From the IMG/VR virus record IMGVR_UViG_2698536533_000007: a stretch of 10,514 nt of DNA; one strand, 5' to 3'. Made by a program: the position numbers. Shown here one piece after another: positions 3,001 to 6,000 of the stretch. The DNA is from a virus (Duplodnaviria; Heunggongvirae; Uroviricota; Caudoviricetes). Positions within the stretch are counted from its first letter, which is position 1, and each line of letters opens with the position of its first letter.

Positions 3001-6000
3001 TTTTACCAGAGAGCAGTTAATAGCTCACGCAGAGGAGACTATTGAAGCACAGAGACTGTGCATACCGGGCACAATCGACCATGACATCATCCGCACATAT
3101 AAGATGGATATTGCTGTTCTGGAAATCGCACTGGTATCGCTGGCAGCAGAGCCAGCCGGTAAATTGCATGAATACAAACCAGTGGGATATCAGCGTCTGG
3201 TCGATGAGTTAACCATGCTGGTAAAGCAGTTAACCTGGCAACTGAGGAAAGCGAAGCCAGACTGCAAATTACCGGATAAGGCGATGAGTTATCTGGAGCG
3301 GAACGGACTGATAAGCGTGGAGGATATTTTACGATGACCTGGCCTGAAGCATTAACAACGGTAGGAATTGCGATGGCGGTGGCGCTGGTGGTGTATTCGA
3401 TTTGCCGCTGGGGATAAAAACGGTTTGCGGGAAAAGGAGAGTTAAGTAGAATTGCAGCGGGTGCTTGAGGCTATCTGTCTCAGGCATGAACACCAAAAGG
3501 CAGATAGAGAAAAGCCCCAGTTAACATTACGCGTCCGGCAAGACGCTTAACATTAATCTGAGGCCAATTTCATGCTTTGCACATGTAGGTTAGCCTCTTA
3601 CATGCCGAAAGGCAAGGAGAAGCAGGCTATGAAGCAGCAAAAGGCGATGTTAATCGCCCTGATCGTCATCTGTTTAACCGTCATAGTGACGGCACTGGTA
3701 ACGAGGAAAGACCTCTGTGAGGTACGAATCCGAACCGGCCAGACGGAGGTCGCTGTCTTCACAGCTTACGAACCTGAGGAGTAAGNNNNNNNNNNNNNNN
3801 NNNNNNNNNNNNNNNNNNNNNNNNNNNNNNNNNNNNNNNNNNNNNNNNNNNNNNNNNNNNNNNNNNNNNNNNNNNNNNNNNNNNNNNNNNNNNNNNNNNN
3901 NNNNNNNNNNNNNNNNNNNNNNNNNNNNNNNNNNNNNNNNNNNNNNNNNNNNNNNNNNNNNNNNNNNNNNNNNNNNNNNNNNNNNNNNNNNNNNNNNNNN
4001 NNNNNNNNNNNNNNNNNNNNNNNNNNNNNNNNNNNNNNNNNNNNNNNNNNNNNNNNNNNNNNNNNAACGCGTTTGAAGTTTTAGATGGTGCCGGAATAGA
4101 ATCAAAAATACTTAAGTAGCGCGCAGGGAGAAGAGGGATGGACCCCGAACAGGGGAGAGCTATTTATCTGGAAGGATTCTGAAGATGAAAATCGAAGAAT
4201 TGCGTGAAATTTTTAGTGAAAATGGCCTCTATGCTGNNNNNNNNNNNNNNNNNNNNNNNNNNNNNNNNNNNNNNNNNNNNNNNNNNNNNNNNNNNNNNNN
4301 NNNNNNNNNNNNNNNNNNNNNNNNNNNNNNNNNNNNNNNNNNNNNNNNNNNNNNNNNNNNNNNNNNNNNNNNNNNNNNNNNNNNNNNNNNNNNNNNNNNN
4401 NNNNNNNNNNNNNNNNNNNNNNNNNNNNNNNNNNNNNNNNNNNNNNNNNNNNNNNNNNNNNNNNNNNNNNNNNNNNNNNNNNNNNNNNNNNNNNNNNNNN
4501 NNNNNNNNNNNCAAACCTCTTCCGGATTACTTCTCCCGGCGACGCCGGAGAGTTGCGATTTTCTGCATCAAATCAAAATAGGTGAGTGGATACACGCAGA
4601 CTTTAAGCGTGTGTGTAACTACGCATTCCACAAGCGTTTTTTCAAACTCCTGCAACTGGGTTTCGATTACTGGACTCCGGTCGGTGGGGCGATCACGCCT
4701 CGCGAACGAAAACTGGTGTCCGGTTTCGTTGATTACNNNNNNNNNNNNNNNNNNNNNNNNNNNNNNNNNNNNNNNNNNNNNNNNNNNNNNNNNNNNNNNN
4801 NNNNNNNNNNNNNNNNNNNNNNNNNNNNNNNNNNNNNNNNNNNNNNNNNNNNNNNNNNNNNNNNNNNNNNNNNNNNNNNNNNNNNNNNNNNNNNNNNNNN
4901 NNNNNNNNNNNNNNNNNNNNNNNNNNNNNNNNNNNNNNNNNNNNNNNNNNNNNNNNNNNNNNNNNNNNNNNNNNNNNNNNNNNNNNNNNNNNNNNNNNNN
5001 NNNNNNNNNNNNAATGCACCCACACTTAACCCGCTTCGGCGGGTTTTTGTTTTTATTTTCAACGCGTTTGAAGTTTTAGATGGTGCCGGAATAGAATCAA
5101 AAATACTTAAGTAGCGCGCAGGGAGAAGAGGGATGGACCCCGAACAGGGGAGTGCTATTTATCTGGAAGGATTCTGTTGATGAAAATCGAAGAATTACGT
5201 GAAATTTTTAGTGAAGATGGCCTCTATACTGTGCGCGTTGAGAATGGCGCTATTGTCAGCCACTGCCTTCCAGACTACACAATTCTGATAATTCAGCCGT
5301 CTTTGCCAGCAGGCACGGGCGGCGCTCTCACGCATTTAAATCTGATTGGTACCAGCATCCCCCATGCACTGAAGAACAGGCCGAATGGCTCATTCAGTGT
5401 TACCGCAGGCGCGGATGCGAGGTTAAAAAAGCCCTTAGCCTCGACTACCGTCACTGGATAATCTCCGTCAGGCTCCCTTACTCCGAACGGCCAACGCGTC
5501 CGTCCCGCACATTCCAGCAACGGATCTGGAGGTAATGTGCGGGTATTACTTCGACCTGTTCTGGTACCGGAACTCGGTCTGGTTATCGTTAAGCCAGGCC
5601 GTGAATCAATGTCAGCATTCCATAACGGCAGAATACTGGTGGAGCCGGAACCAAAAAGCATGCGTAATCTGCCGTCCGGGGTCGTTCCTGCCGCTCGCCA
5701 GCCGCTGGTGGAAGACAAAACATTGCTGCCGTTTTTCAGTAACGCACGGGTGATTCGTGCTGCTGGTGGTGCTGGTGCATTGTCTGACTGGCTGTTGCGC
5801 CATATTAAATCCTGCCAGTGGCCACACGGCGATTATCATCACAGCGAAACCGTCATTCACCGTTATGGTACCGGCGCAATGGTGTTGTGCTGGCACTGCG
5901 ACAACCAGCTGCGTGACCAGACATCCGAATCACTCGAGCAACTTGCTCATCAAAACCTGTCAGCATGGATGATTGACGTCATCGGTCACGCAATAAGCGG

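Follow-up and report, generated by a model that had tools for sequence, protein, structure and literature searches.

The window analysed here is a stretch of 10,514 nucleotides (nt) of caudoviricete DNA (IMG/VR record IMGVR_UViG_2698536533_000007), and its region around positions 3424-3784 very probably holds a hok/mok/sok type I toxin-antitoxin (TA) cassette of the HokD/HokW lineage, situated in the early-right region of a lambdoid prophage. Cassettes of this kind are already known and well described. The assignment to the hok/sok type I modules, which had been put forward in a first-pass annotation made from the sequence alone, is upheld, as a Hok/Gef peptide, a mok frame, a conserved leader and a cis-encoded Sok-like gene all fit it. 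Judged by sequence, the nearest characterised relative of the locus is the hokW-sokW system of 933W and Sp5, and the same architecture is found in hok/sok (parB) of plasmid R1. The coding part of the cassette comprises the following features.

3629-3784, plus strand: hok toxin open reading frame (ORF), 51 amino acids (aa), MKQQKAMLIALIVICLTVIVTALVTRKDLCEVRIRTGQTEVAVFTAYEPEE, obtained by ORF calling and translation.
3616-3619, plus strand: hok Shine-Dalgarno (SD) sequence GGAG, read from the sequence, 9 nt 5' of the ATG.
3572-3784, plus strand: mok-like ORF of 70 aa that shares the frame and the stop codon of hok, in the layout annotated for mokW and hokW of 933W.
3560-3563, plus strand: mok SD sequence GAGG, read from the sequence; GAGGC, which is unchanged across 24 diverse leaders, pairs with the downstream complementary box (dcb).
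3766-3772, plus strand: TTACGAA, which includes the Tyr47 codon (TAC, 3767-3769) and fits the TadA-type A-to-I editing motif; editing there would turn Tyr47 into Cys.

Both the 51-aa Hok-like peptide and the in-frame, mok-like upstream ATG (3572) of the first-pass annotation were recovered. The hok product is covered over its full length by Pfam HOK_GEF (PF01848; E = 1.2e-23, profile positions 1-42 of 42) and matches PHROG 251, 'MokW-like host killing' (E = 2.8e-33), while the NCBIfam Hok subfamily and HokA models match it below their thresholds. Its organisation is that of a Hok/Gef toxin of about 50 aa, with an N-terminal hydrophobic helix, a conserved Cys and a conserved C-terminal part. 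Comparison of translations revealed identity over all 51 aa with HokD/RelF of K-12 (b1562) and with the hokD product of HH97, and HokD is the name that PGAP gives to the identical protein; at the DNA level, the window copy carries a synonymous T at 3718. The mok frame has its own SD, starts upstream of hok and overlaps it. Its ATG is kept across 65 close relatives while the adjacent bases vary, and the SD of R1 mok is likewise GAGG (PMC9841398). The block containing the hok SD, CAAGGAG, is near-invariant among the 24 diverse leaders. By analogy with the characterised systems, translation of hok would be coupled to that of mok. The TACGAA core of the putative editing motif is invariant in the alignment of the window with 933W and R1-type hok, and the equivalent Tyr codon is reported to be edited in the hokC, hokD and hokE mRNAs (bioRxiv 10.1101/2025.08.07.668861).

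The elements of the mRNA leader were placed by alignment of the window with HH97, 933W and an R1-type plasmid hok, together with the Rfam consensus and an RNAalifold analysis of the 24 diverse leaders.

3424-3430, plus strand: weak -35 element of the hok mRNA promoter, TTTGCG/TTGCGG.
3447-3452, plus strand: -10 element of the hok mRNA promoter, TAGAAT, 8/12 in a relaxed hexamer scan and aligned with TATGAT of R1-type hok.
3459-3634, plus strand: leader of the hok mRNA, reaching from its 5' end to the start codon of hok and coinciding with the match to Rfam family RF01794.
3459-3466, plus strand: translational activator (tac) at the mRNA 5' end, forming a stem with the upstream complementary box (ucb) in the Rfam and RNAalifold consensus.
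3471-3478 and 3500-3507, plus strand: the two arms of an inner hairpin of the consensus structures.
3512-3518, plus strand: ucb, the anti-SD of mok, pairing with 3459-3466.
3593-3597, plus strand: dcb, GCCTC, pairing with GAGGC at 3560-3564 in the translatable fold.
3604-3613, plus strand: small hairpin GCC-GAAA-GGC of the consensus structures.

A covariance-model search against the hok/sok families of Rfam, one of the checks proposed in the first-pass annotation, yielded an end-to-end match: cmscan aligned RF01794 ('sok') to 3459-3634 on the plus strand over model positions 1-157 of 157 with 117.5 bits (E = 6.8e-27; gathering score, 59). Folding of the 329-nt plus-strand RNA gave z = -5.45 relative to shuffled sequences, and these two results together place the structure of the hok leader far beyond chance. 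The earlier description of the leader as containing two stem-loops was thus right about a structured RNA and wrong about the count, as the Rfam consensus holds four conserved hairpin elements, three of which were recovered by RNAalifold. Structure prediction, the other computational check proposed, also returned the tac/ucb and mok-SD/dcb stems that mark the structured leaders of the family in the consensus of the 24 leaders; the pairing 3560-3564/3593-3597 is retained in all 24 of them and is present in the Rfam consensus as well. Most leader pairs are invariant across the 24 leaders, with compensatory changes at only 2 pairs, so that the support consists of conservation rather than covariation. 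The partner of tac is ucb in the processed mRNA; in the full-length mRNA of relatives it is a 3' element for fold-back inhibition (fbi). The role of ucb as anti-SD of mok has been described for R1 hok (PMC9841398). Transcription of the hok mRNA would start at about 3457-3459.

Although RF01794 is named 'sok antitoxin', its match lies on the strand of hok and stretches from the 5' end of the mRNA to the hok ATG. The match therefore certifies the hok leader and not, directly, the antisense gene, and its use as direct proof of the latter was rejected. As the real Sok RNA lies on the opposite strand, this mismatch of name and strand could mislead automated annotation. In an Rfam scan of the whole window at gathering thresholds, RF01794 at 3459-3634 was one of two matches, the other being RF02076 at 9741-9930. 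A permissive Rfam search of the hok region added only a ceN48 snoRNA hit at chance level (19 bits against a gathering score of 70).

The antisense gene was located by alignment with 933W, in which a 71-nt sokW RNA is annotated together with mokW and hokW.

3510-3580, minus strand: predicted Sok antisense RNA, 71 nt, 5' end at 3580 and 3' end at 3510, transferred by alignment from the sokW misc_RNA of 933W.
3580-3566, 3565-3513 and beyond, minus strand: parts of Sok, namely a free 5' tail of 15 nt (3580-3566), a long hairpin (3565-3513) and a U4 or U-rich 3' end.
3592-3587, minus strand: Sok promoter -10 element TAACCT, 3/6 to consensus, aligned with TATCCT of the R1-type locus.
3615-3610, minus strand: Sok promoter -35 element TTGCCT, with a 17-nt spacer, aligned with TTGCGC of the R1-type locus.

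The presence of a Sok-like antisense gene running from 3580 to 3510 on the minus strand is supported by several features of the predicted RNA. It folds with -28.6 kcal/mol (z = -4.71) into 15 unpaired nt followed by a hairpin, and its tail spans the mok start codon and the spacer between SD and ATG, whereas its hairpin spans the mok SD. The base of the hairpin shows compensatory changes in relatives (CCUCAG/CUGGGG, CCUCGG/CUCGGGG, CCUCAA/UUUGGGG and CCUCAC/GUGGGG). In R1, the free 5' tail of Sok makes the first contact with the target loop and is followed by a stable stem-loop (PMC1635323), and sokW RNA has been seen by Northern blot in Sp5 (PMC8621323). Sequence features of a putative Sok gene are present in the window, namely promoter hexamers equal to those of the validated sokW promoter and a predicted RNA with tail, hairpin and U4, but the promoter fits the consensus poorly. 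The octamer TAGGTTAG (window 3586-3593) is the sequence that was replaced in the 'pro-less' mutant of sokW (primers YO-421/422). TTGCC or TTGAC is retained at the -35 position in the aligned Sok strands of relatives; this conservation is not specific to the promoter, because the same bases serve the hok mRNA hairpin and SD region.

Comparison with the characterised systems places the locus closest to hokW-mokW-sokW, with which it shares the lambdoid prophage location and the layout of mok, hok and antisense gene. The hokW locus of 933W is about 93% identical to the window at the DNA level over 3334-3785. The -35 and -10 hexamers and the Sok hairpin of sokW are identical to those of the window, while the promoter spacer differs at 3602. 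HokW residues 1-44 are the same as in the window Hok and the C-termini diverge (VDYESEK in HokW, TAYEPEE in the window). The Sok 5' tail and its target differ at about 7 of 17 positions (GCAAAGCAUGAAAUUGG in the window, GUUCAGCAUGGAUUGAG in SokW), and the genes flanking 933W hokW differ from those of the window. Experimental work on this relative showed that HokW is toxic and localises to the inner membrane, that sokW expressed from its own promoter neutralises HokW, that a mutation of the -10 element abolishes the protection, and that a Sp5 fragment ending at the hok ATG supplies sokW antitoxin activity (PMC8621323). Upon treatment of Sp5 with mitomycin C, the sokW RNA vanishes and HokW appears in a RecA-dependent manner, and deletion of hokW-sokW from Sp5 delays growth arrest and halves phage release (PMC8621323).

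The K-12 hokD locus (relF, in the Qin cryptic prophage) encodes the same 51-aa protein, its DNA is about 99% identical to the window over the hok SD and coding sequence, and a 171-nt block that follows the masked part of the window (4066-4236) also follows K-12 hokD with about 91% identity. K-12 hokD stands directly behind relBE without leader, mok or sok, and homology starts at about 3615, whereas the window has a full leader and prophage ORFs upstream. Given this complete regulatory region, the window locus is 'HokD' by protein name only, and it corresponds to the full and presumably ancestral form of the K-12 hokD locus. The more distant R1 hok/sok shares with the window the 5' block GCTTGAGGCT, AGCCCC, GAGGC and the mok ATG, as well as AGG.TAGCCTCTTAC, GCAAGGAGAAG.AGGC.ATGAA and TACGAA. 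R1 Sok likewise has a free 5' tail, a hairpin and a promoter at the equivalent position. In contrast, the R1 leader is only about 56% identical to that of the window and the R1 toxin is clearly diverged (52 aa, compared to 51 aa), and Sok is 71 nt long with a longer hairpin in the window and 64 nt in R1. R1 hok/sok is plasmid-borne and has a demonstrated function in post-segregational killing, which differs from the role demonstrated for a prophage copy.

The 3' end of the cassette lies under a mask, as the first-pass annotation had stated.

3786-4065: masked run of N, which should hold the hok 3' untranslated region (UTR) with processing hairpin, fbi and terminator, plus about 180 nt more.

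In relatives, the approximately 100 nt behind the hok stop codon contain a GC-rich hairpin, the fbi element GCATCCTCAACGCACCCGC and a terminator hairpin with a run of T residues. The mRNA 5' end GCGGGTGCTTGAGGC pairs in these relatives with the element of the 3' UTR at about -30 to -38 kcal/mol, and in Photorhabdus loci a U-to-C change in the 5' element and an A-to-G change in the 3' element form a compensatory pair. This fold-back inhibition pairing of tac and fbi belongs to the R1 model (PMC9841398). The first 24 nt of the window mRNA are identical to those of many relatives that have the 5'/3' duplex. From these comparisons the masked content is probably fbi and terminator, albeit with a length that misfits the commonest arrangement.

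Several observations weigh against an intact cassette at this locus. The conserved block AACGCGTTTGAAG (4066 onwards) lies 281 nt behind the hok stop codon in the window compared to 101 nt in 24 relatives, which implies a different junction or extra content at the 3' flank and is the chief reservation about calling the module intact; an insertion or a different junction under the mask is possible. Since fbi, processing hairpin and terminator of the module are all masked, they set a limit on what can be said of its integrity. At 3602 the window carries a rare G-to-A variant that is seen once among 65 close relatives and maps to the spacer of the Sok promoter as well as to an unpaired internal-loop position of the hok-SD hairpin. 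A standard sigma-70 scan of 3300-3786 returned no promoter on either strand, and a terminator scan of the same region returned none on either strand, so that the Sok terminator fails it. Both promoters fit the consensus poorly (Sok 7/12, hok 8/12), and as consensus matching locates neither of them, a relaxed scan and homology were used. The PADLOC defence models gave no match to the hok product. Expression of the window copy is a prediction from sequence, and the chromosomal hok loci tested so far show no post-segregational killing (cited in bioRxiv 10.1101/2025.08.07.668861).

Some of these observations are shared by the better of two alternative explanations, namely that the toxin ORF and leader look intact in a copy whose TA pair is non-working, either through a disrupted or rearranged 3' UTR or through loss of promoter activity. 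Many chromosomal hok loci are decayed or silenced, among them K-12 hokD, which lost everything upstream of its SD and has homology from about 3615, just behind relE; the leaderless form recurs in several of the fetched loci (L009, L090 and L094). The long spacing to the downstream block, the rare variant at 3602 and the weak promoters would all be in line with such a fate. On the other hand, every element that could be checked is present and in register, including the full Rfam match, the mok ATG with its SD and the intact Hok ORF of a widespread protein. The -10 and -35 hexamers of Sok are those of the functional sokW, the 117-nt segment covering Sok and its promoter is identical in two other genomes (L015 and L016), the variant at 3602 falls in a promoter spacer and an unpaired hairpin position, and the 3' UTR persists across prophages despite very diverse cassette junctions. 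On balance, decay or silencing of this copy is considered unlikely, and a hok/mok/sok cassette remains the favoured interpretation.

The first-pass annotation had also proposed a promoter-like element on the opposite strand within the first hok codons. The idea of a Sok promoter was correct, and its placement was about 40 bases too far downstream. In the relaxed scan of the minus strand, two hexamer pairs in the first hok codons, TTAACA-18-TAGCCT at 3653..3624 and TAAACA-18-TAACAT at 3676..3647, reach 8/12 and are probably what had been seen, while the pair TTGCCT-17-TAACCT at 3615..3587 inside mok reaches 7/12. That the antisense promoter lies in the first hok codons, producing a longer antisense RNA that would extend over the hok SD and start codon too, is very improbable: the two 8/12 pairs score slightly above the promoter supported by homology, but neither passes the standard scan (chance expectation, 0.4 per region), a Sp5 fragment that ends at the hok ATG and lacks the -35 hexamers of the 8/12 pairs still gives sokW activity (PMC8621323), mutation of the upstream -10 element TAACCT alone abolished protection in Sp5 (PMC8621323), the annotated 5' end of sokW maps to 3580, and the hok coding bases are constrained by the protein, which makes their conservation uninformative on a promoter. 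The evidence accordingly favours the 7/12 match as the putative Sok promoter; this match lies within mok, 14-42 nt 5' of the hok ATG.

Within the otherwise conserved cassette, one short patch stands out by its variability. Among 65 close, non-identical relatives, a sample that is not unbiased, nucleotide diversity is 0.30 in 3565-3586, which comprises the Sok 5' tail, the Sok start site and the mok start region. It is 0.014 in the Sok hairpin, 0.026 in the block of promoter, dcb and SD and 0.011 in hok, with a range of 0.01-0.05 for the rest of the cassette, making the patch about 10-fold more variable than the remainder. At least 16 alleles of the patch occur among the relatives and the window carries one of them. 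Of 11 genomes or samples from which at least two intact copies were fetched and compared, 10 have co-resident copies with different patch alleles. As the patch is the part of Sok that first contacts the target, such a pattern is expected if each cassette needs a private antitoxin. Tentatively, the patch could be under diversifying selection or subject to frequent allele exchange, which would make the antitoxins private and divide the hok/sok systems into 'incompatibility groups'; we regard this as a possible explanation of the diversity data and not as the probable one. A limited check of the literature found no description of diversification of this patch, and on cross-talk or specificity among hok paralogues it found only that R1 hok escapes repression by the chromosomal Sok RNAs of K-12.

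The genomic setting is that of a widespread prophage gene. A query of 487 bases matches 4956 of 5426 complete Escherichia coli genomes, with at least 80% of the query covered in 1093 of them and a best identity of 98%; the matching E. coli DNA is annotated as 'type I toxin-antitoxin system toxin HokD'. The phage collection contains 84 matching records, among them Stx phages such as 933W (92.7%). The neighbouring ORFs encode a DnaC/IstB-like ATPase, a DUF977 protein, a QueH-like protein, a DUF968 protein, antiterminator Q and a DNA methylase, and the gene order of the window is colinear with annotated lambdoid prophages. These neighbours and the colinearity assign the cassette to the nin (early-right) region of a lambdoid E. 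coli prophage, where prophage-borne hokW-type loci are located. The left edge of the cassette lies just upstream of the hok -10 element, where homology begins at about 3439-3447 in most relatives. The hok cassette behaves as a portable unit, with upstream and downstream junctions that differ between prophages (loci L006-L138). The 117-nt segment of Sok and its promoter mentioned above is shared without change by E. coli ECMA0423 and Shigella flexneri SFBU1023 (L015 and L016, respectively). In L015, the leader is 98.8% identical to that of the window and the C-terminus of Hok is different, a sequence pattern that suggests recombination inside the hok gene.

Additional features were observed around the cassette. 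A hydrophobic ORF of 27 aa (3334-3417, plus strand), the start of which overlaps the stop codon of the ORF 2993-3337 (ATGA), is conserved in about 30 fetched loci with mostly conservative substitutions and with stop codons in a few. Searches against Pfam, PHROG and PADLOC gave no match for this ORF, and the RefSeq and 933W records carry no annotation for it; from its sequence it may be an unannotated small membrane protein adjoining the hok cassette. Downstream of hok, a direct repeat (4066-4236 and 5061-5231) extends over at least 171 nt with 96% identity and a distance of 995 nt, its edges being cut by masks (4237 and 4065). In each copy one ORF ends (...NAFEVLDGAGIESKILK) and the next begins, and the arrangement resembles a tandem duplication of a unit about the size of a gene. 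The RF02076 match is a full-length STnc100 RNA at 9741-9930 (plus strand; 123.6 bits, E = 2e-27), downstream of Q and the DNA methylase. In a related prophage of strain TUM10008, tRNA genes occupy the position equivalent to STnc100; a tRNA scan of the window, which is partly masked, found none. The prophage ORF 1755-2441 (plus strand) matches Pfam QueH, epoxyqueuosine reductase, over its full length (E = 1.9e-65), which places an enzyme of the queuosine pathway in the nin region.

If the cassette works like its relatives in R1 and 933W/Sp5, a weak promoter with its -10 element at 3447-3452 would produce a stable hok mRNA starting at about 3457-3459. In the full-length mRNA, tac (3459-3466) would be held by the 3' fbi element and ucb (3512-3518) would sequester the mok ribosome-binding site. 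In this locked form neither mok nor hok would be translated, and binding of Sok would be prevented. Slow trimming of the 3' end would then free the 5' end, allow tac/ucb and mok-SD/dcb to pair and expose the mok start region. The promoter inside mok would supply a short-lived and abundant Sok RNA (minus strand, about 3580 to 3510), the 15-nt tail of which would pair across the mok start; mok and the coupled hok would be blocked and the duplex would be cleaved by RNase III. Once Sok synthesis stops, because the element has been lost, transcription has been shut off or the prophage has been induced, the processed mRNA would be translated and the 51-aa Hok membrane peptide would depolarise or damage the inner membrane. 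Toxicity of Hok, neutralisation by Sok and the combination of an unstable Sok with a stable hok mRNA are attributed to the window copy by this analogy.

With regard to function, the first-pass annotation had invoked post-segregational killing and abortive infection. This detail needs correction, as for prophage copies only faster lysis and phage release on induction have been demonstrated (PMC8621323). By analogy with hokW-sokW, the role of the cassette is most likely an earlier growth arrest or lysis and an increased phage release after induction. Prophage addiction or the exclusion of superinfecting phages are possible additional roles. R1 hok/sok excludes T4 (cited in PMC8621323), and according to a recent survey, hok is over-represented in prophages but not in the neighbourhood of defence systems (bioRxiv 10.1101/2025.08.07.668861).

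With regard to annotation, genome pipelines name the toxin ORF alone ('HokD') and give no entry for mok, Sok or the regulatory RNA elements, and the record thereby understates a probably complete TA cassette. Beyond correct annotation its importance is small. The variable Sok-tail patch could be used for typing cassettes and for asking whether co-resident copies are insulated from each other. Finally, prophage hok/sok can speed lysis and raise the phage yield on induction, as seen for Sp5, which is relevant to lambdoid prophages including those of the Stx type.

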